Shown here in pieces: positions 3,742 to 13,126 of a stretch of DNA of 24,000 nucleotides. Made by a program: the position numbers and the translations under genes. The stretch comes from an uncultured Gammaproteobacteria bacterium (GTDB lineage: Bacteria > Patescibacteriota > Patescibacteriia > Patescibacteriales > UBA12465). The notes beneath the pieces were generated by a model that was not told the origin of the DNA, made no database searches, and saw only the letters and a list, made by a program, of their open reading frames with translations. Every line of letters starts with the position of its first letter. The stretch's first letter is position 1. The stretch spans positions 1-24,000 of the forward strand of contig CAZYNT010000010.1 of the NCBI GenBank assembly GCA_964648205.1, in the 5' to 3' direction.

Positions 3742-3796
3742 ATTATAATAGAATATTATATTAATAGGATATTATATAAAAAGAGGGATGTAAATA

Positions 3797-3930
3797 AAAC
3801 CCCGCCAATAATCTGTAGAGCGCGGCCGGACGTTTTCGGCGTCCGGCGGACGAGAAGCCAATCCTTATTTAGGAGAGAGTTTTTAAATAAGAACCTTACT
3901 TCTCCGCTCTACAGGTTACTAGCGGGGTTT
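3797..3930 (-). ncRNA. Structured three-way-junction RNA element of unknown class (candidate cis-leader/attenuator of the CDF gene, or a small RNA)
   Basis: Nested helices read directly: 3797-3805/3922-3930 (9 bp), 3813-3822/3905-3914 (10 bp), side hairpin 3825-3832/3840-3847 (8 bp), 3852-3857/3899-3904 (6 bp), and apical 3864-3871/3884-3891 (8 bp, 12-nt loop). Internal loop 3858-3863/3892-3898 pairs only in minus-sense RNA (U.G, A-U, G.U, U.G). The minus-sense closing helix is followed by UUUUAUUU. The element lies ~55 nt upstream of the CDF ATG. Strand assignment is tentative. Confidence 0.45.
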
Positions 3931-4061: not shown

Positions 4062-4715
4062 CTAAATAAAGGAAAACTGCAATCTTCTTCTATATTCTGC
4101 TACGTCTTCCCTTCTAAGCAAAAATTCTCCTAACCAATAGGTTTGGTCGTATTTAGTATTCTTACTACGACCGCCTTCCTGCCAGGCAGAATTTTTTATT
4201 CTTTCTTCAGCTTCTTCCGGAGGGATACTGTTTAGATATTCCTTTACCCTCTCTATGCTGAGTACCTTACCCCAGAAATGCACCTCGTTAGTTCTGGTCG
4301 CCAAGTCTATTATCTCTTCTGGCGACCCGGAAATTAAAGTTTTTTGGAAATCCTTTCTGCTCTGCATAATTTCTGCAAACTCATAACCCATTCCAAAAAA
4401 CCCTTTTCCGTTCCATAGATCAAAGGCCTCTTTAAAAGAAACGTCCTCCCTCGTTATATATACTTCAACGAGTTTCGATGCTATAGTGTGGCAATCACTT
4501 GTACAATAGTCAGCATCTTCCATTTTTATGAAATGGTTAATGATACTCCAGGCTTTTGTCTTATCAACGTCCAGCCTTTTCACTACCACGCTCCACACCT
4601 CTTCTTTATTTTTTTTCTTAGCGTAGTCGATGAGTTCTTCGTAATTCATCTTTTCCAGTTCTTCCTCAGAGGTACCAAATGTTCTGAGTAAAAAATCATA
4701 ATTATCTTTAGCCAT
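4062..4715 (-). CDS. Hypothetical protein (217 aa from the preferred start)
   Basis: Track ORF 4062..4745 starts at a GTG. The in-frame ATG at 4715 (MAKDNYDF) is preceded by GGGGAGAAAA, a good Shine-Dalgarno. I recognise no family motif. Confidence 0.6.
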   Translation of the reverse strand: MAKDNYDFLLRTFGTSEEELEKMNYEELIDYAKKKNKEEVWSVVVKRLDVDKTKAWSIINHFIKMEDADYCTSDCHTIASKLVEVYITREDVSFKEAFDLWNGKGFFGMGYEFAEIMQSRKDFQKTLISGSPEEIIDLATRTNEVHFWGKVLSIERVKEYLNSIPPEEAEERIKNSAWQEGGRSKNTKYDQTYWLGEFLLRREDVAEYRRRLQFSFI

Positions 4716-4771
4716 TTTTCTCCCCGCGCTTACTTTACTCGTCACGGGTTTATTTTTTTAGTTAATACTGA

Positions 4772-4847
4772 TTTTATTCCCATCTCCACTTCTCGCTCTT
4801 GGGGATTAGGGCGCCCTGTTTTATGTCGAGGGAGGACAAAAGAAGAT
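4772..4847. repeat. Conserved intergenic element, copy 1 (partner at 9157-9221)
   Basis: Plus strand ttttattcccatctccacttctcgctcttggggattagggcgccctgttttatgtcgagggaggac aligns by eye with tttttttatccatctgaatttcgctcttaggatttatagcgctcaatttcatgtcgagagaagat at roughly three quarters identity. The central palindrome is GGGCGCCC (4809-4816). Confidence 0.6.
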
Positions 4848-4848
4848 T

Positions 4849-5112
4849 TCATTTTTTTAACGCCCGACGCAGAATTTCTGCAAAATCGCTAGAAGCGCCC
4901 GAATTTTCTTCTGGGCTCTCCTCGTATTTGCTTTCTTTCTGGTTTCCAAAATGATAGTCATAAACATAATTCTTGACATCATTTGGATCGGCGCCGCAAA
5001 AGAAATCCTGACCGCCAATGGAAATCAGGTGGTCATAAACCCGGCTCCGGCCGCAAACACCGACGATGTGTTCATCAATATCGTCAGTATTAAGAGCGGC
5101 TACGCTCTTCCG
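4849..5112 (-). other. 87-codon open frame with no ATG/GTG/TTG start, in the +1 frame relative to the helicase 3' end
   Basis: Hand translation of the minus strand from 5112 gives RKSVAALNTDDIDEHIVGVCGRSRVYDHLISIGGQDFFCGADPNDVKNYVYDYHFGNQKESKYEESPEENSGASSDFAEILRRALKK, ending at a TGA stop (4849-4851). The composition looks protein-like and there is no canonical start, so it is absent from the ORF track. Confidence 0.3.
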
Positions 5113-8100
5113 CTAAGCCCGCTAATTTTTCCATCAGGTCCTTAGCCTCGGAGATAGACTCTTCAGCTCCTGGAAAGTCGGCCTGGCCGGCAGCGCTAGA
5201 GGCAGAGGAAATCAGATCACGGATCTGATTAACTTCGTCAATTACTAAATCTGCAGGAATCTCATTGAGATAATTCTGAAATGATTCCTGAAATTTAGCG
5301 ACGAGTTCAATCGTCTCCGTGTTTTTTTGTTCCAGCTCAGATTTAACCAAAGCAATTTTTTCCTCAACTGCGGCAATGGTGTCGGAGATATTCTCAACAC
5401 TCAAATTAGCAATTGCCGAATCAACTGCTTCTGAAATCTGACGCTGGGCCAATTTGCCCAAAGCGGTCCAGGACCAGTAGCGATACCAGGGATGAACCTG
5501 TCCCAAGCTAGAGCCTGAATAATAGCCAATAAACGATCGAACGGCTTTTAGTGTTTCCACCTCGGCTTCTTCCTGGTTCTTTTTTAGAACCAAGCGCACT
5601 TGATCGCCGGACACGCAGAGAGATGGATAAGCACAAAGGCTTGAACCGTCATCCTTAACGGCGACTTCGATCGGCTTCAGCTGAACTAAAAGATTTTTTA
5701 AATTTTCCTGACCTTCCAGCCAAGAAGAATTAAAGCTTCTTTCCGCCTGCGACCAAGCTTCAGTTAAGCGCTTATTTTCAAAATAAGCTTTAACTTCCAC
5801 CCAGTCACAAAAGCTGTTATTCCAATCAACGCTGAGACTGACTGAACGACCGCCGGGTAGGGTAACTGCCCCCTCGGACTCTTTGGCCATCTGCTCAGTT
5901 ATTTGAATGCTGGCCTGATTTTCTGAATAGGAAACGTGAATTTCTTCGCCGTTAACTATTATTGAATCAGGATTCTCGGCCAAAATCTTAGCTTCCTTAG
6001 CGGCATCAATAACCGGCAGAAGCAATGATTCTGTTTGAGCGTCAGCGAGACGAGCCGTGCCGTTAAGCTTCTCACGGCAGAATTCTTGCCATTCCCAATT
6101 TGAATTCGGGCACAAGAAAATCTTTTCGCCAGAGCGCTGATTAAGCTCGCGCATCCGCTTCGCCGTGGCGACGTTCTGAGCGACAAAATCATATCCGGCC
6201 AGGCTATAGCCGTAATACAATTTGTTCGCCAACCATTGGGCGAAAACTTCAGCGGCCTGAGAATGATCAGGCGTTTCCACGACTTCTTCTTTAACGAGTA
6301 TGCCGTTAAAATAAGTCTGCCGCGTTGAAACGCATGCGTCTTTCTCTGAGTTGTATTGAGGATTTACCCCCTCAACAACCTTAGAAAGCTGCGGTGCGAC
6401 TTCGACGAGCATGGTCGGATTAACGCTCGTGGCCATCGTAACCAGGTGCAGAATCATCCGGCCACGGCGAGTCTGAATCTCAATATCAAACGGAAGTCCG
6501 ATAAGCCAGTCCCCACCGAATTGAAGTTCTTCTCTCGCCTGCTTGCGGATCGTGTCGTCACCGTTTTTCCATTCGCCCCAGCTAACCGACTTATAAAGAT
6601 GGTCGATCATGCCGGAACAGATGGCGCGCATAATATCATCCCGCTTCCCGGAACTCTGCAAAGAATGAACTTTGCCTTTCAGGGAATCGGTTAATAGACG
6701 GCGGCGATCATTAGCCTGATGATAGGCCTTAACAAAAAGGCCATTCAGACGACGGTCTTCGTTCGACAGATTTTTAGCGCCGCGAAAAATTGCCAGTTGA
6801 GCGAGAACATTACTGTCTTTCTCTTCCGGACAAAACTTCCGACGGGCTAAATCATTGCCATCTTCTTCGCTCCCGTCCGGCATTTTCACCTTCCGAGAAG
6901 TGATACCGCCCTGCTCGAGAATTGCAGCGACACTAATAATGTCACCAACTACTCCGAGCTTATCGGCCTCTACGATCATGCGACCATATTGGACCGAAAT
7001 AGGAAGGCGGGCAACCTGGCGGCCGGTGGAAGTTACTTCGCCGTTTTCATCCATACAGCCGAGAGCTCTTAAAGCCCTTTTAGCCTCATGGATCTGATCG
7101 AGAGGCGGCTGATGAAAAAAGCTAAGTTCTTCCGCGTCAATTTTGGCTTCAGCCAAACGGAGAACCGTCTGGTCTAAACGGACGCGAAGAATTTCAGCCA
7201 GCGGAAAATCTAAACGACCTTCGCCCTGGGGGCAATGATCAATGTAGATTCCTTCGCGGCAACGGCCAGCCCGGCCTTTACGCTGTGCGCGGTCAGCCAT
7301 GGAAATAGCGCGCAGGTATAAACCCTCAACGCCGTCCATCAGTTCAATCCGCTTTTCTGTGCCGTCATCAACCACAGCGTCGATGTCCTCGATAGTAATC
7401 GAAGTCTGCGCAACGTTCGTAGCGATGACGCACTTGGCGCGATCGTAAGTTCTGAAAACCTTATCCTGGTCTTCGGACTCCAACTCGCCATGGAGCGGCA
7501 ATATTTCCGCCTGCAGGCCTTCGACTTTTTTCAAAGCGGCAGTCAGTTCCAAAATTTCCGCTTTGCCCGGTTTAAAAACCAGAACATTGCGGCCTTCCTG
7601 AAGAAGGGTCGTAACATCCTGGAGAACGTTCAAGCTCTGCATCCTTTCGGAATGATCAGCCTGACGTTCCTCGACCGGATAACAGCGGCCTGGAACAGAA
7701 ATCACCGGCGCCGAACTAAAAAACTCAGATAATTTTTCCGCCTCTAACGTGGCGGACATTATCACGAGCTTGAAGGCGGCACCATTCTCAATCTGGCGTT
7801 TTGACCAAGCGGCCAAAACTTCCATATTAAGATTCCACTCGTGGACCTCGTCCAGCACCAGGATATGATGCCGTCCGACGCCCATCAATTCTCGCACCAG
7901 GGCTAAGCCATCGGTGCAGAAAAGACAACGGGTGCTGGCGGAATCCTGGCGCTCGTAAGCGGTCCGGAAACCAATTTCCTGCCCGAGCTCCCCGTTCCGT
8001 TCCTGAGCGACGCGTTTGGCCACTGAACGAGCGGCTAAACGGCGCGGCTGAGTCACGACCAAGGAATATCCTTCGTCGAGTAAGAACTGCGGCACGCGGG

Positions 8101-8209
8101 TTGATTTCCCGGCGCCAGTTTCAGCGGTGATTATCGTAACCGAGCTACTTCTCACCGAATTAATAATCTGGACCCGGAAATCATCAACGGGCAATTTCTG
8201 ATTCTTCAT
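5090..8209 (-). CDS. DEAH-box (HrpA/HrpB/DHX-like, superfamily 2) helicase with a long uncharacterised C-terminal region
   Basis: Motif I GAGKST (aa 32-37), Ia TQPRRLAARS, Ib TDG, II DEVH (aa 120-123), III SAT, and VI QRKGRAGR. An HA2-like segment follows (LRLAEAKIDAEELSFFHQPP...LPISVQYGRMIV). About 400 further residues have no motif I recognise, and the extreme C-terminus is probably coiled-coil. Confidence 0.85.
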   Translation of the reverse strand: MKNQKLPVDDFRVQIINSVRSSSVTIITAETGAGKSTRVPQFLLDEGYSLVVTQPRRLAARSVAKRVAQERNGELGQEIGFRTAYERQDSASTRCLFCTDGLALVRELMGVGRHHILVLDEVHEWNLNMEVLAAWSKRQIENGAAFKLVIMSATLEAEKLSEFFSSAPVISVPGRCYPVEERQADHSERMQSLNVLQDVTTLLQEGRNVLVFKPGKAEILELTAALKKVEGLQAEILPLHGELESEDQDKVFRTYDRAKCVIATNVAQTSITIEDIDAVVDDGTEKRIELMDGVEGLYLRAISMADRAQRKGRAGRCREGIYIDHCPQGEGRLDFPLAEILRVRLDQTVLRLAEAKIDAEELSFFHQPPLDQIHEAKRALRALGCMDENGEVTSTGRQVARLPISVQYGRMIVEADKLGVVGDIISVAAILEQGGITSRKVKMPDGSEEDGNDLARRKFCPEEKDSNVLAQLAIFRGAKNLSNEDRRLNGLFVKAYHQANDRRRLLTDSLKGKVHSLQSSGKRDDIMRAICSGMIDHLYKSVSWGEWKNGDDTIRKQAREELQFGGDWLIGLPFDIEIQTRRGRMILHLVTMATSVNPTMLVEVAPQLSKVVEGVNPQYNSEKDACVSTRQTYFNGILVKEEVVETPDHSQAAEVFAQWLANKLYYGYSLAGYDFVAQNVATAKRMRELNQRSGEKIFLCPNSNWEWQEFCREKLNGTARLADAQTESLLLPVIDAAKEAKILAENPDSIIVNGEEIHVSYSENQASIQITEQMAKESEGAVTLPGGRSVSLSVDWNNSFCDWVEVKAYFENKRLTEAWSQAERSFNSSWLEGQENLKNLLVQLKPIEVAVKDDGSSLCAYPSLCVSGDQVRLVLKKNQEEAEVETLKAVRSFIGYYSGSSLGQVHPWYRYWSWTALGKLAQRQISEAVDSAIANLSVENISDTIAAVEEKIALVKSELEQKNTETIELVAKFQESFQNYLNEIPADLVIDEVNQIRDLISSASSAAGQADFPGAEESISEAKDLMEKLAGLAEERSRS

Positions 8210-8216
8210 GGTTTAC

Positions 8217-8280
8217 AATTTTTAGATTGTTATCTAAAAAACAAAAGTTGATTTGTCTCTTAAATAACAATCTAAAAATT
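8217..8280 (-). promoter_or_regulatory. Perfect 17-bp inverted repeat immediately 5' of the helicase start codon
   Basis: aatttttagattgttat (8217-8233) is the exact reverse complement of ataacaatctaaaaatt (8264-8280). The spacer is 30 nt and contains an inner ACAAA/TTTGT pair. The repeat ends 7 nt before the ATG at 8209, and no Shine-Dalgarno is visible. Confidence 0.55.
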
Positions 8281-8321
8281 AACCTTTGAAAAATTTCTAC
8301 TCGTCCAAGAATTTCTTCTCT

Positions 8322-8385
8322 GAGACCACCATTTTAAAATGATGATCTCGGAAAGAAAGACGAGCATGAACGGCTCGTCTTCTTT
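8322..8385 (-). terminator. Junction module C: GC hairpin with CGUUCAU loop plus second hairpin, downstream of the 194-aa gene
   Basis: Minus sense reads AGACGAGC-CGUUCAU-GCUCGUCU (8358-8380, flanked by a further A/U extension), then UUCUUUCC. Next comes hairpin GAGAUCAUCAUUUU/AAAAUGGUGGUCUC (8322-8349). Its two U.G pairs are C.A mismatches on the plus strand. Confidence 0.6.
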
Positions 8386-8404
8386 GAACATTTTTCGCCG
8401 TGTT

Positions 8405-8989
8405 TTATTCGGGGCTAGCTTCAAAATCACCCTCGTACTCGTAGTGTTCGAGTACTTGAAATGATTTTTCTACGCCGATGACATCAGCGATGCCATTAAT
8501 GTGATTAAAAATTATATCCTCTTTGTCGGGAGCGAGGATAATCTCCCCCTTAAGAGTCCGAACTTTCAGCACGGTTCGCTCCTTTTTATAGTACCCGTGA
8601 TTGCAGGTACCATATTCCTCAAATTTCCAGCACCCCATTCCGTCACAGCGGGAATGGTATTCGGAAATTTTGGAAACAAATCTCTCCCTGAGAAGAGACA
8701 CCATCCGATCGCCTCTTCCTTCGGCGACTTTTTCCAACCGCTCCAGGTTGATAATTTCCCTGTCGCGAGAAGAAATTATTTCTTTAAAAGAGGTAACTTC
8801 TTTGAACATGACCTGGAAAATCCAGGTCCAAAAAACTGAGAAGGTGGTCCATAATGCCGCCATTCCCAATTCCGACCAGGACGGGTGCTCGGTTGGTGCA
8901 CACCTCATCCAAAGGAATACTGATATCCACCACATGCACATGATTGCGATGATGGTGTTGGTTGTTCTTTTTGTTTTCATTTTTTTCAT
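8405..8989 (-). CDS. Hypothetical membrane protein with a Cys/His cluster
   Basis: 194-aa ORF with two N-terminal hydrophobic helices (IIAIMCMWWISVFLWM and LGMAALWTTFSVFWTWIFQVMF). The soluble C-terminal domain contains CDGMGCWKFEEYGTCNH. No Shine-Dalgarno is obvious. Confidence 0.55.
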   Translation of the reverse strand: MKKMKTKRTTNTIIAIMCMWWISVFLWMRCAPTEHPSWSELGMAALWTTFSVFWTWIFQVMFKEVTSFKEIISSRDREIINLERLEKVAEGRGDRMVSLLRERFVSKISEYHSRCDGMGCWKFEEYGTCNHGYYKKERTVLKVRTLKGEIILAPDKEDIIFNHINGIADVIGVEKSFQVLEHYEYEGDFEASPE

Positions 8990-8998
8990 TTTTTTCAG

Positions 8999-9051
8999 TT
9001 TAAAGGTTTATCCAATACACCAAATTCTGATGCGCTAAATAAACCTTTAAA
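8999..9051 (-). promoter_or_regulatory. Perfect 13-bp inverted repeat immediately 5' of the 194-aa gene start
   Basis: tttaaaggtttat (8999-9011) is the exact reverse complement of ataaacctttaaa (9039-9051). The spacer is 27 nt, and the repeat ends 9 nt before the ATG at 8989. Confidence 0.5.
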
Positions 9052-9076
9052 TCGTAAAAATGAAAACTTCTTCTCT

Positions 9077-9140
9077 AAAAACATAATTTAAAATTATGTT
9101 TTTGGAAAAGAAGCGAACTGGATGAACAACCAGTTCGCTT
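9077..9140 (-). terminator. Junction module B: GC hairpin with UGUUCAU loop plus perfect AU palindrome, downstream of the 350-aa gene
   Basis: Minus sense reads AAGCGAACUGG-UUGUUCAU-CCAGUUCGCUU (9111-9140), then CUUUUCC. Next is a 13-bp perfect palindrome AAAAACAUAAUUU/AAAUUAUGUUUUU (9077-9103), followed by AGAGAAGAAG, which can pair back to the CUUUUC tract. The stem differs from module A by a compensated C-G to U-A change. Confidence 0.6.
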
Positions 9141-9156
9141 TTTAAACTTTAATTAA

Positions 9157-9221
9157 TTTTTTTATCCATCTGAATTTCGCTCTTAGGATTTATAGCGCTC
9201 AATTTCATGTCGAGAGAAGAT
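9157..9221. repeat. Conserved intergenic element, copy 2 (partner at 4772-4847)
   Basis: See copy 1. The central palindrome here is AGCGCT (9194-9199), where copy 1 has GGGCGCCC. The element begins ~15 nt after the stop of the 350-aa gene. Confidence 0.6.
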
Positions 9222-9236
9222 AGTGTCCATAATTCC

Positions 9237-10289
9237 CTACCTGGTGAATCCAGGCACAGAAACTATCTGGCCGTTCTCGCGGATGACCGCGGGGTGGCCA
9301 GTTGCCGGCGCGACCACGTCGGGACGGGCGCCGCCCAAGGCAGTCAGCAACATTCCGCTGACCACCAAAAACTTACCCGGTTGCGGCGCTGGCAGCCCGG
9401 TGACTTCACCGAACTTCTGTTCGGTGATGCCGTCGCCGTCGAAATCGGCAAACGACGCGGCCACGCGGGGAGCAGGGGCGGCGGGAATAAGGACCCGCCC
9501 ATCGTTAAGCCGCAGCATGTGCGGCGTCAGATTGACAAATTTTTCACCCAATGCGAACCGGGTGAAAAATTCTGCCTCAGTCTGGTTAGGGTAACCGCCC
9601 CAGTAGGCGGAGCCACCCGACTTGCCGAGACCGGAACCGCCGTTCCAGCCTTCGAACTTTTCTTTAAGGACAGCGCACAATTGTCCGTCCCCATAAAAAT
9701 TCACCTCCCCGTCGCCGGAGAGGACCAGGAGCTGGTCGTACTGACCGAATAAACGGTCAGTGACGGTTGCTGACTTGCTGTGCGAAAGGCGCACGATCGT
9801 CAGGCGACCGACGATTTCGCGACTGGCAATCGCGATTTCAGCGGCCGCTTCCTGCTCGGACGTAATACCCTGAGCGGAACGGTCGGCCAAGCGAACCTCA
9901 GCTACTTCCTCGGGCGTGACGTCCATTGCCATCATCGCCGGAATGTAGCCGCTGTCGTTGGCGGCGATGAGCTGCTGATAGCGGTTCGGCTCCAGGCCGA
10001 GCAGGTTCAACACCTGCAGGATGGAGGCCGGTTCCGCGGCTCGGTCGCCATGATGGTCGACCAGAATGACTCCTTCCGGCAGGTCGATGTCCTTGGTCAG
10101 CTCGACCAGAACCGGGACCTTGCCTGCGCTTGCCGCTTCAGCAATTTCAGTGGCATAGGCGGAGGCCGCGGCGCCCCAGCCCAAGTTATTATTTCTGACT
10201 TCGGCGCCGGTCACTGCCAGCACCTGAGCGATTTCGGTCATCTCGGCATCGCGTCCGCCGAGGAAAAATACAAAATTTTTCTTATTCAT
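9237..10289 (-). CDS. Hypothetical protein, strongly GC-enriched (350 aa from the preferred start)
   Basis: Track ORF 9237..10358. I prefer the ATG at 10289 (MNKKNFVFFLGGRDAEM), but the start is ambiguous. Hand counts of 60-nt lines give ~62-65% GC against ~32-42% in the right-hand genes. Three long spurious ORFs overlap it in other frames, as expected for stop-poor GC-rich DNA. Motifs seen are LVDHHG and DFDGDG. Confidence 0.6.
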   Translation of the reverse strand: MNKKNFVFFLGGRDAEMTEIAQVLAVTGAEVRNNNLGWGAAASAYATEIAEAASAGKVPVLVELTKDIDLPEGVILVDHHGDRAAEPASILQVLNLLGLEPNRYQQLIAANDSGYIPAMMAMDVTPEEVAEVRLADRSAQGITSEQEAAAEIAIASREIVGRLTIVRLSHSKSATVTDRLFGQYDQLLVLSGDGEVNFYGDGQLCAVLKEKFEGWNGGSGLGKSGGSAYWGGYPNQTEAEFFTRFALGEKFVNLTPHMLRLNDGRVLIPAAPAPRVAASFADFDGDGITEQKFGEVTGLPAPQPGKFLVVSGMLLTALGGARPDVVAPATGHPAVIRENGQIVSVPGFTR

Positions 10290-10418
10290 TTTTATTGCCG
10301 CTCTTAACGGCTTTTGTTTCCTCCGAAGTGACATTACCCGGATTATCCTGAGGCTCATCTTTTAAAATGAAACACAAAATAATCCGAACAATAGGCTTAA
10401 GTTAAAAATGAAAACAAA

Positions 10419-10480
10419 TTCGCTTTCGTCTTGCCGAAATAATCGGAAGACTCATCAGCCCGTCTGAGACGAGGAGCAAA
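10419..10480 (-). ncRNA. Hammerhead ribozyme, type III topology (candidate)
   Basis: Minus sense reads UUUGCU C CUCGUC-UCA-GACGGG CUGAUGA GUCUUCCGA-UUAUU-UCGGCAAGAC GAA AGCGAA. The CUGAUGA core is present, G10.1/C11.1 close stem II, and GAA, A15.1:U16.1 and C17 are in place. All three stems form; I and II are closed and III is open. The G.U pairs are consistent only with the minus strand. Confidence 0.75.
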
Positions 10481-10481
10481 A

Positions 10482-10506
10482 GGGGCAAGATTGAACGGCT
10501 TGCCCC
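10482..10506 (-). terminator. Junction module D hairpin (CGUUCAA-type loop) abutting the hammerhead; terminator function doubtful
   Basis: Minus sense reads GGGGCAAG-CCGUUCAAU-CUUGCCCC. The following UUUU is part of hammerhead stem III. The hairpin lies 140 nt downstream of the 78-aa gene stop. Confidence 0.4.
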
Positions 10507-10646
10507 CCGAACTTCCCGATGGCTAACGCCAAATCCTTTTCGAGAGAAAGGAACCCACTATTTTTTCTCCAACCGTAAGGGAATTTTATATTGGCTGGGT
10601 TTCATTCCCGGTTAATGCAGATTAGTGACTGCTCCCGGTTTTCAGT

Positions 10647-10883
10647 TCAAAGCGAGAAATCTTCGTAGAAGATTTCTACCTTTTTACCTTCTCTGATAAA
10701 GAGGGTGCCGCCATAAGAACTCCAACCATTCCCTTGGCGCACCTCTTCGTGACCAATGTCGATTTTAACAACATTGGTCACAACCTTACCCTTAAGAGTA
10801 AGGTTGAAGGTGATTGAACTAATCCAGCTCTCGATCGCCAGGCTAGAGGCGTCGAGGCCGAAGTTTTTTGCTAAACTAGCCAT
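10647..10883 (-). CDS. Small hypothetical protein (78 aa)
   Basis: ORF with ATG at 10883 preceded by GAGG about 9 nt upstream. The sequence looks beta-rich and I recognise no family. Confidence 0.5.
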   Translation of the reverse strand: MASLAKNFGLDASSLAIESWISSITFNLTLKGKVVTNVVKIDIGHEEVRQGNGWSSYGGTLFIREGKKVEIFYEDFSL

Positions 10884-10888
10884 AACTT

Positions 10889-10935
10889 AAGCCTCAAGGA
10901 TGCTGCGTTCATAAATCGCTTCATCTTTAAGGCCT
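10889..10935 (-). promoter_or_regulatory. 5'-UTR hairpin sequestering the Shine-Dalgarno of the 78-aa gene
   Basis: Minus-sense AGGCCUUAA (10927-10935) pairs with UUGAGGCUU (10889-10897) over 9 bp, including two G.U pairs that are mismatches on the plus strand. The 29-nt spacer has inner GAUG/CAUC and GCG/CGC pairs. The 3' arm contains the GAGG Shine-Dalgarno and ends 5 nt before the AUG. Confidence 0.5.
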
Positions 10936-10989
10936 ATATATATCTAATTTAACTAATTTTTTAAACTAATTAATTTCGATTATTAAATT

Positions 10990-11633
10990 TTTAAAGTCCT
11001 TTCCCCTCCCGATACTCAGGTCCTGATCTATTTCGAGGAAATTTCCGGGCCCCAAACTTGTTCAAGGTTTGAGACTTCGGCCGATCTCCTCGTAAGAGAC
11101 GGTCGCGATAGCCGCTGTTCACTGATCCTTTTCTCCTTGCGGAAATACGGACACAAATTACTAGGATCGCCTGCGCCTTCGGATACGGTTTGCGACGTAC
11201 CCTCCGGATCGGCTCGACTAAACGCTGATTCTAACTGTTTAAGTTAGAAGCAAACGATAGGCGTTTTGCTAATCTCGGGACATGGACTCTCTCCCGGCTC
11301 ATTTTTTGAACCAATGGCTGTCCATTTCAATCTCCTAAAATCGGCAGTAAACGCTATTATTTTTATAATGTACTAAGAAATAATTTAACCGTTATTTCTT
11401 CGGCTGAGCTTGCGCTCCTTATCCGCAGGGCGGATAGTGATGAAGAGGAGCTACCGACAGTCTTGATAGGAATCTGTTAAAGCGGCATGGGTGATCACTT
11501 TAAACTTCATATTCGATTTTCCTGATAACTGTCATTTTTTATAGAACCGCAAATAAGTTTATTATGACTTTTTCGCAGTATCTAACTCTCTCCACTTCAT
11601 TACTATTCGTCTTGCTTTAGCGCCATTGGCACC
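10990..11633 (-). ncRNA. Structured non-coding region of unknown class (one or more RNAs; boundaries and strand tentative)
   Basis: No ORF of 60 aa or more. There are many GC-rich local helices in an AT-rich context. Examples are 11420-11436 (UAUCCGC/GCGGAUA) nested in 11414-11419/11446-11451, 11375-11400 (9-bp stem), 11232-11248 (TTCTAACT/AGTTAGAA) nested in AAACGC/GCGTTT, and 11276-11296 (CGGGA/UCCCG). Confidence 0.3.
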
Positions 11634-11658
11634 AAAAAAACTCTTCCGAGGAAAGAGT
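11634..11658 (-). terminator. Rho-independent terminator (minus strand)
   Basis: Minus sense reads ACUCUUU-CCUCG-GAAGAGU, a 7-bp stem including one U.G pair, followed directly by UUUUUUU (plus-strand a-run at 11634-11640). Confidence 0.6.
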
Positions 11659-12027
11659 TGTTATTATGATTAGGCGCGATAACAATTAAATGTAAATATT
11701 TGGCCGCTTAATCTAATGGCTCTCTCCTTCCATTAATTAATTTATTTTATTGTAATGTTCTGTCTCGCTAGGCCGAATTTTATCGGCGTCTTATCGGAGA
11801 CTGGGTCTTCCTCATCTTTCTTGATGAGAAGTGGCCGCTCGCCGCTAAGGCGTTTCCTGTCTATACCCTTCGAATTGGACCGACACCATGCTCTCTCCGT
11901 CATAATGTCCGCCACTCTAATTCAGCTAAGTATAGAATCAAGAAGTGTTTGACTTTCTATTGAATGTTTTATTGAATGAACTTTTGGATATTTCCGAATT
12001 TCTCTTTGGCCTTCTCTCACTTTCGAT
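11634..12027 (-). ncRNA. Candidate ~390-nt ncRNA bounded by a promoter and a terminator, with GGAGAGAG-loop hairpins
   Basis: The region lies between the minus-strand promoter (12034-12062) and the terminator (11634-11658), with no credible ORF. Hairpin 11884-11907 is CAUUAUG-ACGGAGAGAG-CAUGGUG, with two U.G pairs valid only on the minus strand. Hairpin 11714-11735 is UAAUGG-AAGGAGAGAG-CCAUUA. Other helices include CUUCUCAUC/GAUGAGGAAG and GCCGA/UCGGC, and AGUGGC/GCCACU encloses a domain. Confidence 0.4.
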
Positions 12028-12033
12028 ACTGAC

Positions 12034-12062
12034 AGTTTAGCACCCTTTGACAACTTTGTCAA
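12034..12062 (-). promoter_or_regulatory. Candidate sigma70-type promoter facing the non-coding region, embedded in the palindrome TTGACAA-CT-TTGTCAA
   Basis: On the minus strand: -35 TTGACA (12057-12062), a 17-nt spacer, then -10 TAAACT (12034-12039). The palindrome at 12047-12062 also yields a plus-strand TTGACA. Confidence 0.4.
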
Positions 12063-12158
12063 TACTAATTAATACATTTCTCAGTAATTGTTAGTAAAAT
12101 ACAAGACAGCACTGCATAAAATATGCGTATTTATTTATTAATTTTGTCATTATTAAAA

Positions 12159-12187
12159 TTGACACTTATCTTTTGTTTTGCTATAAT
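12159..12187 (+). promoter_or_regulatory. Consensus sigma70-type promoter for the TrmB-like gene
   Basis: TTGACA (12159-12164), an exactly 17-nt spacer, then TATAAT (12182-12187), about 88 nt upstream of the ATG at 12275. Confidence 0.6.
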
Positions 12188-12274
12188 AGAGATATAAATA
12201 AGGAATCTGCTTAACGACTAATAAAATAAAAACTTATTTTTGTAAAGTTATCCACAACCCATATTTACAAATAT

Positions 12275-13126
12275 ATGAACGAAAAAATACTTTTAGGCCT
12301 TGGCCTAACTAAAGTCCAGGCCGAAATTCTAACCTGCCTTTTGCAAAACGGCCCCCAAAAAGCCAGCAACATCGCCAACATAACAAAAAGACCTCGAGGC
12401 GTTGCCTATAAGGGTCTTGAAGAATTGATTGATTTAGACTTGGCTATAAAAAAAGAGAGCAAGCTTGGCGTGGCTTTATTTACAGCCGAACACCCTTCTA
12501 ACCTGGAAAAAGTTCTTGAGCGGCGCGAAAAGGAACTGGATAAAACCAAGAAAGAATTCGCCGCTTCCCTGCCGGATCTGGTTTCCGCCTATAACCTGGT
12601 CAGCAATAAGCCGGGAGTCAGATTCTACGAAGGCGAGGAGGGGATTAAAAAAGTTTTGGAAGATACCTTGCTCAGTAACCCCGACAAAAAGCTTTATACT
12701 TTTTCCGATGTGGCTAGCTATGCGACTTATCTTAGCGATTGGAACACAAGCTACTATGCTCCACAAAGAAAAAAGCTCGGCGTTTTTGAGAAAGTTATTA
12801 TCCCCGATAACGCTCGAGCCCTGGAATATATGAAAGATTATAAGTCTAATGAAGTAACGGATATTTTATTTATTGACCATAAAGCCTACCCTTTCGCGAC
12901 TGAAATAAATATTTATAACAACAAAGTTTCTTTCGTGACCTTCGCTCCCGATTTTATGGTCGGCGTAATCGTTGAAAATAAAGAAATATATAAAACCTTG
13001 CTTTCTATTTTTAATTTCATGTGGCAATTCTGCAAACAAAATTTACAAAATTCCCAACCCGCTTGGCTAAAAAGACAAACCACCCCGTCATTACCGGCTG
13101 CCGGCTCAAGCGACCAGTCAGTTTAA
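12275..13126 (+). CDS. TrmB-family winged-helix transcriptional regulator
   Basis: The N-terminus LGLTKVQAEILTCLLQNGPQKASNIANITKRPRGVAYKGLEELIDLDLA matches the TrmB-type HTH pattern. A ~200-aa C-terminal domain follows. The stop codon overlaps the stop of the convergent giant gene. Confidence 0.65.
   Translation: MNEKILLGLGLTKVQAEILTCLLQNGPQKASNIANITKRPRGVAYKGLEELIDLDLAIKKESKLGVALFTAEHPSNLEKVLERREKELDKTKKEFAASLPDLVSAYNLVSNKPGVRFYEGEEGIKKVLEDTLLSNPDKKLYTFSDVASYATYLSDWNTSYYAPQRKKLGVFEKVIIPDNARALEYMKDYKSNEVTDILFIDHKAYPFATEINIYNNKVSFVTFAPDFMVGVIVENKEIYKTLLSIFNFMWQFCKQNLQNSQPAWLKRQTTPSLPAAGSSDQSV

Follow-up and report, generated by a model that had tools for sequence, protein, structure and literature searches.

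Introduction

In the antisense attenuation systems of the plasmids pT181, pIP501 and pAMbeta1, and in the kissing between RNAI and RNAII of ColE1, complementary hairpin loops initiate the RNA–RNA contact. Pairing over long distances between the 5' and 3' parts of a single RNA is found in the fold-back of the hok mRNA (tac/fbi), in flavivirus cyclization and in the kissing loops between the 3' cap-independent translation element (CITE) and the 5' untranslated region of plant viruses. In this paper we looked at a gene cluster of an uncultured member of the Patescibacteria, located in a window of 24,000 nt (assembly GCA_964648205.1, contig CAZYNT010000010.1, positions 1 to 24,000), which lies on contig 10 of a 0.90 Mb genome (20 contigs, G+C ~41%, completeness 98.8%). 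On the minus strand, the cluster is preceded by a structured non-coding leader RNA with several copies of the 8-nt purine word GGAGAGAG, and it is closed by a structured terminator, termed here the 3' element, which displays the pyrimidine word CUCUCUCC in its apical loop. The best-supported reading, which we favor as moderately probable, is an RNA–RNA pairing of the purine loops of the leader with the pyrimidine words of terminators, foremost with the conserved loop of the 3' element. The most likely partner of GGAGAGAG is this terminator loop and not a CsrA-type protein.

As in the plasmid systems, a terminator would be set against an alternative pairing in the target, which here is predicted, and the outcome would be a feedback on dosage. 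In contrast to them, the partners share one strand, sit at opposite ends of the cluster with kilobases between them and involve no countertranscript; the purine loop is repeated one to seven times. The use of short complementary words, often in loops, that couple the ends of a transcript is shared with hok, the flaviviruses and the 3' CITEs, but those are single mRNAs or viral genomes, whereas here a multi-gene bacterial transcript with a multi-copy 5' partner would be concerned. With the CsrB, RsmZ and RsmY RNAs the leader has in common its non-coding nature, the repeated GGA-containing loops, a terminator and the multivalent display. It differs from them in that there is no CsrA, no Rfam match, a conserved word of 8 nt instead of GGA, and a complementary RNA loop. 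The size, the dense covarying structure, the patchy distribution and the lack of an assigned biochemical role are reminiscent of OLE, ROOL, GOLLD and raiA, to which the leader is unrelated by sequence or in Rfam, and from which it is set apart as a promoter-proximal cluster leader with a repeated loop word.

The repeated word and its complement

On the plus strand the word reads CTCTCTCC and occurs four times within 612 bp (11287-11294, 11586-11593, 11720-11727 and 11891-11898), with a fifth copy on the minus strand at 3872-3879. These positions, already named in an earlier annotation of this DNA (the original prediction), are confirmed, and the five copies compare with 0.53 expected in the window; none of 100 shuffles gave five. 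The original prediction had also proposed a genome-wide count, and a word that is common throughout the genome would have spoken against it. The count on both strands is 23, where ~17-27 copies are expected by chance from the base composition, and therefore CTCTCTCC is not the general Shine-Dalgarno word of this genome; its excess is local to this locus. Read as RNA from the minus strand, the clustered copies become GGAGAGAG, and the fifth copy, in the same sense, is CUCUCUCC, the exact complement of GGAGAGAG.

The only other occurrences of the 8-mer in structured RNAs of this genome are in two tRNA-Ser genes (C7:61737-61828 and C17:2205-2290), where the 3' ends read CUCUCUCCG and the pyrimidine 8-mer falls within the 3' strands of the acceptors. 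We take these two occurrences as a coincidence.

The leader RNA

The region 10884-12274 (1391 bp) holds no credible open reading frame (ORF) and is flanked by a minus-strand ORF of 78 amino acids (aa) and by a plus-strand gene of the TrmB family. We infer that the leader RNA spans ~12027 to ~11000 on the minus strand, which amounts to ~1 kb here and ~0.5 kb in the smallest relatives. Its promoter, at 12034-12062 on the minus strand, consists of TTGACA, 17 nt and TAAACT with TG, and gives a putative start near 12027; consensus-like promoters were found in the same RNA sense and the same place in the three distant homologs examined. The leader DNA is kept in 12 of the 69 genomes of the genus. 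From scans of genomes and metagenomes we assembled 23 non-redundant homologous loci (19.4 kb); ~14 of the 33 matches of the metagenome pattern scan were due to chance and were removed using other anchors. A common plan is seen in all 23 loci, in which a core of ~320 nt (11026-11346) and zero to three additional modules are followed by conserved sequence at 12015-12030, by a pair of divergent promoters that have TTGACA dyads, and by the regulator gene.

The conserved 3' part of the core, block A (11026-11266, minus strand), includes a hairpin domain at 11028-11128, on which the covariance model R1 is based; in a sample of 151 genomes from across the order, 12 have a match to this model. In block A 93.8% of the cells are paired and nine pairs show compensatory changes. 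Consensus folding of 19 sequences gives an alifold energy of -48.6 kcal/mol in the minus sense versus -30.8 kcal/mol in the plus sense. For helices that are present on both strands, the wobble pairs favor the minus sense by 21 to 10, and in the covarying helices of the core and of module M1 (modules are described below) wobble is almost exclusively minus-sense; the wobble pairs of M3 and M4 fit the minus sense too. Based on the consensus folding energy, the wobble counts, the promoter and the U-run of a terminator inside the leader, the leader is a real RNA that is read from the minus strand.

Metatranscriptome contigs match the region at 100% identity over 10842-11315, 11130-11287, 11450-11616, 11486-11726 and 11728-11911; these contigs are strandless and are no proof of transcription, their depth is similar to that of the flanking genes, and a gap at 12006-12500 is uninformative. 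Rfam 15 has no match at gathering score over the window, and at E<=10 gave only noise over 10600-12400, while ARAGORN found neither a tRNA nor a tmRNA in the window. Several identities for the leader were considered and rejected. A stretch in block A, GAGGAAA-UUUCCGGGC, resembled the P4 region of RNase P, but the RNase P RNA of this genome is located elsewhere (the RNase P RNA and the tmRNA sit on contigs C5 and C6). A coding role was rejected, as there is no conserved frame or start codon, and so was a leader dedicated to the adjacent 78-aa gene, as that neighbor varies among relatives. In the literature on the word, on structured RNAs of Patescibacteria and on hammerhead operons in CPR we found no account of this element.

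Motif modules in the leader

In the 23 loci GGAGAGAG is found 59 times in the RNA sense, versus 0.38 expected; 21 loci hold one to five copies and two truncated fragments hold none. The word is evidently under selection, as judged by comparison of the loci. Its copies form orthologous modules, M1 to M4, across the relatives, and within its loop or junction each copy occupies the 3' side, where it borders immediately on the 3' strand of the stem.

The clearest modules are two hairpins that the original prediction had described in the minus sense and that are present as it described them. The M4 hairpin (11877-11910, minus strand; 8-mer at 11891-11898) has a 10-nt loop, ACGGAGAGAG, on the stem CAUUAUG/CAUGGUG at 11884-11907. 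In this stem 88.6% of the cells are paired and two pairs alternate between U.G, C-G and U-A, a pattern compatible with the minus sense only; the 8-mer itself is invariant. The M3 hairpin (11714-11735, minus strand; 8-mer at 11720-11727) reads UAAUGG / AAGGAGAGAG / CCAUUA. In 17 sequences 96.6% of its cells are paired and compensatory changes are found at four of the seven pairs, and the 10-nt loop is the same in all 17. Comparing loop conservation with stem covariation had been proposed as a check, and in both modules it was found that the loop is invariant while the stem covaries. The AUG codons that follow two copies of the word are not conserved among relatives, which agrees with the view that the mini-ORFs they open are incidental.

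The other two copies, at 11287 and 11586, are outside small hairpin loops. M2 is a long helix of 11433-11449 with 11590-11606 (minus strand), with 170 Watson-Crick cells across 13 sequences and with the 8-mer (11586-11593) at its apical edge. The M1 domain of the core (11267-11346, minus strand) leaves the 8-mer (11287-11294) unpaired, in a junction that adjoins the helix AUGGAC/GUCCAU. The helices flanking it have 35 and 16 minus-sense wobble cells versus 4 and 0 in the other sense. Across 19 sequences, the M1 word is GGAGAGAG in 14 and GGAGAGGG in five.

Two loci (L047 and L050) have an additional copy of the motif inside an inserted hairpin. Beyond G000 and G016, eight of the ten genomes with R1 matches show two to six copies of GGAGAGRG upstream on the RNA strand, and at the level of the order the hairpins that display the copies in their loops have unrelated stems, and the word invariably abuts the 3' strand of its stem.

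In two further loci (L022:2031-2106 and L024:1238-1313) an M4/M3 chimera is found, with the 5' half of M4 and the 3' half of M3 fused precisely within the 8-mer that they have in common; such a chimera is the mark of a deletion that arose when copies of the motif recombined. G227 carries same-strand pairs of GGAGAGAG a few hundred nt apart (C17:29352-29622 and C4:138-536), away from the cluster that is linked to its 3' element, and these may be additional leaders within one genome.

The 3' element and its linkage to the leader

The 3' element (3792-3930, minus strand) closes the same gene cluster ~7 kb downstream of the leader in this genome. Its 139 nt form a three-way junction with an apical hairpin (3860-3895), held by a long closing stem after which comes a U-run. 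The 12-nt apical loop is AAAACUCUCUCC, of which the 8-mer (3872-3879) fills the 3' part, and in the minimum free energy (MFE) structure of -74.3 kcal/mol this loop is fully unpaired. In nine sequences of the genus 96.2% of the cells are paired and compensatory changes are found at 18 of 37 pairs. The loop word is CUCUCUCC in all nine, although the stem beneath it differs. The closing stem, which is rich in G+C, and the UUUU after it are found in all homologs, as in an intrinsic terminator. The position of the 3' element at the end of the cluster is constant no matter which gene comes next, and this speaks for a terminal element of the cluster over a riboswitch-like leader of the metal-efflux gene downstream.

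Model R2 of the 3' element matches in 25 of the 151 genomes of the order. Among the strong matches at this level the loop word is CUCUCUCC in 16 of 17 and CUUUCUCC in one (G096); it is CUCUCUCC also in G037, G022, G055 and G056. Leader and 3' element alike have the word on the 3' side of the loop, behind 5' spacers that are A/U-rich or purine, and therefore the 3' loop is not a mere inverted leader hairpin. In kissing complexes such a geometry suits a loop–loop helix that is stacked on each stem.

The leader and the 3' element are found together. In at least 20 genomes, which come from the genus, from the order as a whole and from two further orders, a leader bearing GGAGAGAG has a same-strand 3' element 0.4-9.4 kb downstream. 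Of the 12 genomes of the genus that have the leader, 11 carry the 3' element. Ten of them have it on the contig of the leader, 5-13 kb away, and where the strand was checked it is that of the leader, at a downstream distance of 5-9.4 kb; the eleventh, G013, has it on a small contig of its own. At the level of the order, a same-strand 3' element is found 2.5-8.3 kb downstream of the leader in G121, G036 and G160, whereas G037 has the 3' element on a small separate contig. Five more genomes without an R1 match in the strict search (G146, G191, G157, G159 and G176) hold 7, 3, 3, 2 and 1 same-strand copies of GGAGAGAG, located 0.4-4 kb upstream of the 3' element, where ~0.03-0.13 copies are expected per 4 kb; in G159 an R1 match appears under laxer filters. 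G213 and G227, from other orders, have three copies of GGAGAGAG each, 1.7-4.2 kb upstream of the 3' element. G125 and G114, with leader homologs that lack the 8-mer, have no such 3' element in their assemblies.

A compact form of the unit is seen in G159 (C5:62054-63700), where an R1 domain and a CUCUCUCC 3' element share a strand, are separated by less than 1 kb and seem to enclose little cargo, if any.

Complementarity and the internal terminator

The loops of the leader and of the 3' element are mutually complementary and are conserved while their stems vary, as in kissing loops. The 8-bp duplex of GGAGAGAG with CUCUCUCC is calculated at -12.7 to -13.5 kcal/mol. The variants found are GGAGAGGG in M1, CUUUCUCC in the loop of G096, CUCUCUCU in the loop of G227 and CUCUUUCC in the arm of an internal terminator here, and all of them are transitions that preserve the duplex through G.U pairs.

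This internal terminator is an intrinsic terminator within the leader (11632-11659, minus strand), with a G+C-rich stem (11659-11639) and a U-run directly after it. Its 5' arm is CUCUUUCC in this genome and exactly CUCUCUCC in eight of the 23 loci, and the terminator with its minus-strand U-run is conserved within the longer leaders. In the MFE structures of the stretch from M3 to the terminator (G000, G016 and the metagenome homolog L065), the motif pairs with the terminator arm, and this pairing replaces both the M3 hairpin and the terminator; an antiterminator-like alternative fold is thus predicted. Minimal leaders such as that of G022 have only M1 and no internal terminator, yet the CUCUCUCC 3' element is downstream, and therefore the general function must involve the 3' element.

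We suggest that the GGAGAGAG loops are RNA–RNA pairing sites with two partners. The first would be CUCUCUCC in the apical loop of the 3' element at 3792-3930; in the longer leaders the internal terminator, whose 5' arm resembles CUCUCUCC, would supply the second. If M3 paired with this arm, the formation of the internal terminator would be blocked. The loop of the 3' element, either from finished transcripts or at the far end of the leader's own transcript, would compete for the same loops. As a model only, a CUCUCUCC loop from the 3' element that titrates M3 would favor termination, and in that way would exert negative feedback on the cluster. Candidate outcomes are such a feedback attenuation, a control of read-through at the end of the cluster, and a tethering of the 5' and 3' ends. 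The physical pairing of the two loops and its regulatory outcome are what we infer from the conserved complementarity.

Several points weigh against this pairing. No lineage was seen in which both words have changed to a new complementary pair, and there is no true trans-covariation because the motif is nearly invariant. The copies are mismatched in number, with four purine loops and one 3' loop in this genome, and a loop of 10 nt leaves little steric room for a kissing helix of 8 bp. Runs of purines or pyrimidines have many possible complements. The wobble pattern of the 17-bp M2 helix fits the plus sense (22 versus 8), opposite to the other helices of the leader. The 3' element is also more widespread than the R1 domain (25 versus 12 of the 151 genomes), and four genomes with R1 and the motif (G091, G107, G111 and G170) showed no convincing 3' element in assemblies that are fragmented. 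Finally, related genomes are not independent samples.

Alternative explanations

One alternative is that the leader acts as a sponge or scaffold for a protein, with identical purine loops that bind an RNA-binding protein in the style of CsrB/RsmZ or CrcZ, and with a CUCUCUCC loop that is unrelated or a competitor. The original prediction pointed in this direction, and the architecture that it recognized, a multivalent display of loops in a non-coding minus-sense RNA, holds. As in CsrB-type RNAs, several conserved hairpins have A-N-GGA loops (M3 and M4) and there is a terminator, and the invariance of the 8-mer over class-level distances could also be explained by sequence-specific binding of a protein. 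Membership in the CsrB/RsmZ family does not hold. A six-frame search of the 98.8% complete genome for CsrA (PF02599) gave no match at E<=1, Hfq (PF17209) was not found in it either, and the leader matches no Rfam family. The sole co-inherited neighbor is a TrmBL2-like DNA-binding regulator, and a protein sponge fails to predict both the exactly complementary, conserved same-strand loop at the end of the cluster and the restriction of variants to those compatible with wobble. We consider this explanation unlikely, although it is the one that fares best among the alternatives.

Another explanation is that the loops are Shine-Dalgarno mimics, which bind the 30S subunit and so protect a long leader from a 5' exonuclease or titrate ribosomes. 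The STAB-SD stabilizer of the cryIIIA gene of Bacillus thuringiensis is a precedent for such 30S binding. The 16S rRNA is not assembled in this genome and its tail was taken from two genomes of the genus, where the 3' end is canonical and ends in CACCUCCUUUCU / GGAUCACCUCCUUUCU. GGAG, and AAGGAG in M3, are complementary to this tail, and the leader has many further GGAG-like stretches in the minus sense. However, the pairing covers only 4-6 nt, and of the 8-mer itself only GGAG (-6.4 kcal/mol, versus -12.7 kcal/mol for the full complement), with no extended complementarity, and the invariant AGAG half of the word is left unexplained. Neither the chance-level frequency of the word in the genome nor the lack of conserved start codons downstream of it fits this role. 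Titration of ribosomes, which the original prediction offered as a second option, is thus a weak proposal and we find it improbable. Its accompanying remark on an "anti-SD-like RNA" came closest to our reading: the complement at 3872-3879 is a conserved loop and the likely partner.

A purely internal structural role was weighed as well, in which the motif pairs with the arm of the internal terminator and with other pyrimidine stretches of the leader, and the resemblance of the 3' loop is independent. The predicted joining of M3 to the terminator arm is in line with this, as is the position of the M2 motif, partly within a long helix. The minimal leader of G022 speaks against it, since it retains the CUCUCUCC 3' element with only M1 and no internal terminator to pair with; so do distant leaders that have no RNA-sense CUCUCUCC at all and yet retain two to six purine loops. 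There is little to recommend this role as the whole explanation.

The weakest alternative, that the words are DNA-level sites for the neighboring regulator or belong to a plus-sense RNA whose C/U-rich loops pair with Shine-Dalgarno regions, as in RsaE and RNAIII, draws on the wobble pattern of the M2 helix and on a weak promoter-like plus-strand site at 11341-11369, but is very improbable, given that the stems around the motif covary through G.U pairs that exist in the minus sense only, that both the conserved promoter and the U-run of the terminator are in the minus sense, that the "-35" of the 11341-11369 site falls inside a covarying minus-sense helix, and that the likely operators of the regulator are TTGACA dyads. 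A plus-strand reading of the whole RNA, which was prompted by the M2 helix and by a GUUCAA-type loop at 11060, was rejected on the basis of the wobble counts and the promoter.

The plus-sense bias of M2 could represent conserved A.C mismatches or an antisense transcript. The loop of the 3' hairpin of the leader (11060-11065) is UUGAACAA in the minus sense, which is GUUCAA on the other strand, and hairpins with (C/U)GUUCA(A/U) in the minus sense are found at the gene junctions 4024, 8384, 9120 and 10491.

Neighboring genes

The TrmB-family regulator gene (12275-13126, plus strand) is divergent from the leader and has its own promoter at 12159-12187, with TTGACA/TGTCAA dyads between the leader and the regulator promoters. 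An orthologue is present in all 12 leader-bearing genomes of the genus, where the other genomes have only paralogues of <=35% identity, and the gene is adjacent and divergent in five distant loci. The predicted model of the protein, which combines a winged helix and a long helix with a PLD-like domain, resembles the DNA-binding proteins TrmBL2 and TrmB, and PADLOC and Pfam searches found nothing in it beyond the TrmB domain. The regulator is more likely an operator-binding controller of both promoters than an RNA binder, and its operators are likely the TTGACA dyads and not the 8-mer. A perfect DnaA-box-like word, TTATCCACA, is located at 12251-12259, ~15 nt before the start codon of the regulator, and is kept in most homologous loci.

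The protein-coding genes of the cluster (4062-10883) occupy the interval from the leader to the 3' element; all are on the minus strand, with products of 78, 373, 194, 1039 and 227 aa. The gene content differs among relatives, including the gene that adjoins the leader. Two PADLOC models, "DHH_CorA" and "C3a116", match the 373-aa ORF (9237-10358, minus strand) with E values of 1e-50 to 1e-67, and the ORF carries an "Unk_01" part at its C terminus. DHH_CorA stands for a DHH hydrolase that accompanies the CorA of type III CRISPR, and based on these matches the cargo of the cluster looks related to defense or signaling.

Discussion

A large part of bacterial diversity belongs to the Patescibacteria, whose genomes are tiny and from which, to our knowledge, almost no regulatory RNAs have been described. 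In the locus analyzed here a leader of ~1 kb and a structured terminator, neither of them represented in Rfam, bear perfectly complementary loop words, and these words are preserved across an order and beyond, around a cargo that changes between genomes. We propose, tentatively and as something that may well prove otherwise, that this is a hitherto undescribed operon-scale RNA circuit of Patescibacteria, in which the leader and the terminator recognize each other through the invariant 8-nt kissing pair GGAGAGAG/CUCUCUCC. By this means transcripts that are complete, or the 3' end as it emerges, would determine how much termination occurs in the leader, at the cluster's far end, or at both. Such a circuit would be a protein-free dosage controller, or an end-to-end clamp, for swappable accessory cassettes.

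If the loops do not pair, their multivalent display would still indicate an unknown binder in organisms that have neither CsrA nor Hfq. If they do pair, the locus would represent a simple and directly testable case of long-range RNA–RNA control over a whole bacterial gene cluster; the pairing would also provide a handle for the discovery of such clusters, and would explain why the 8-mer is invariant where all else drifts.

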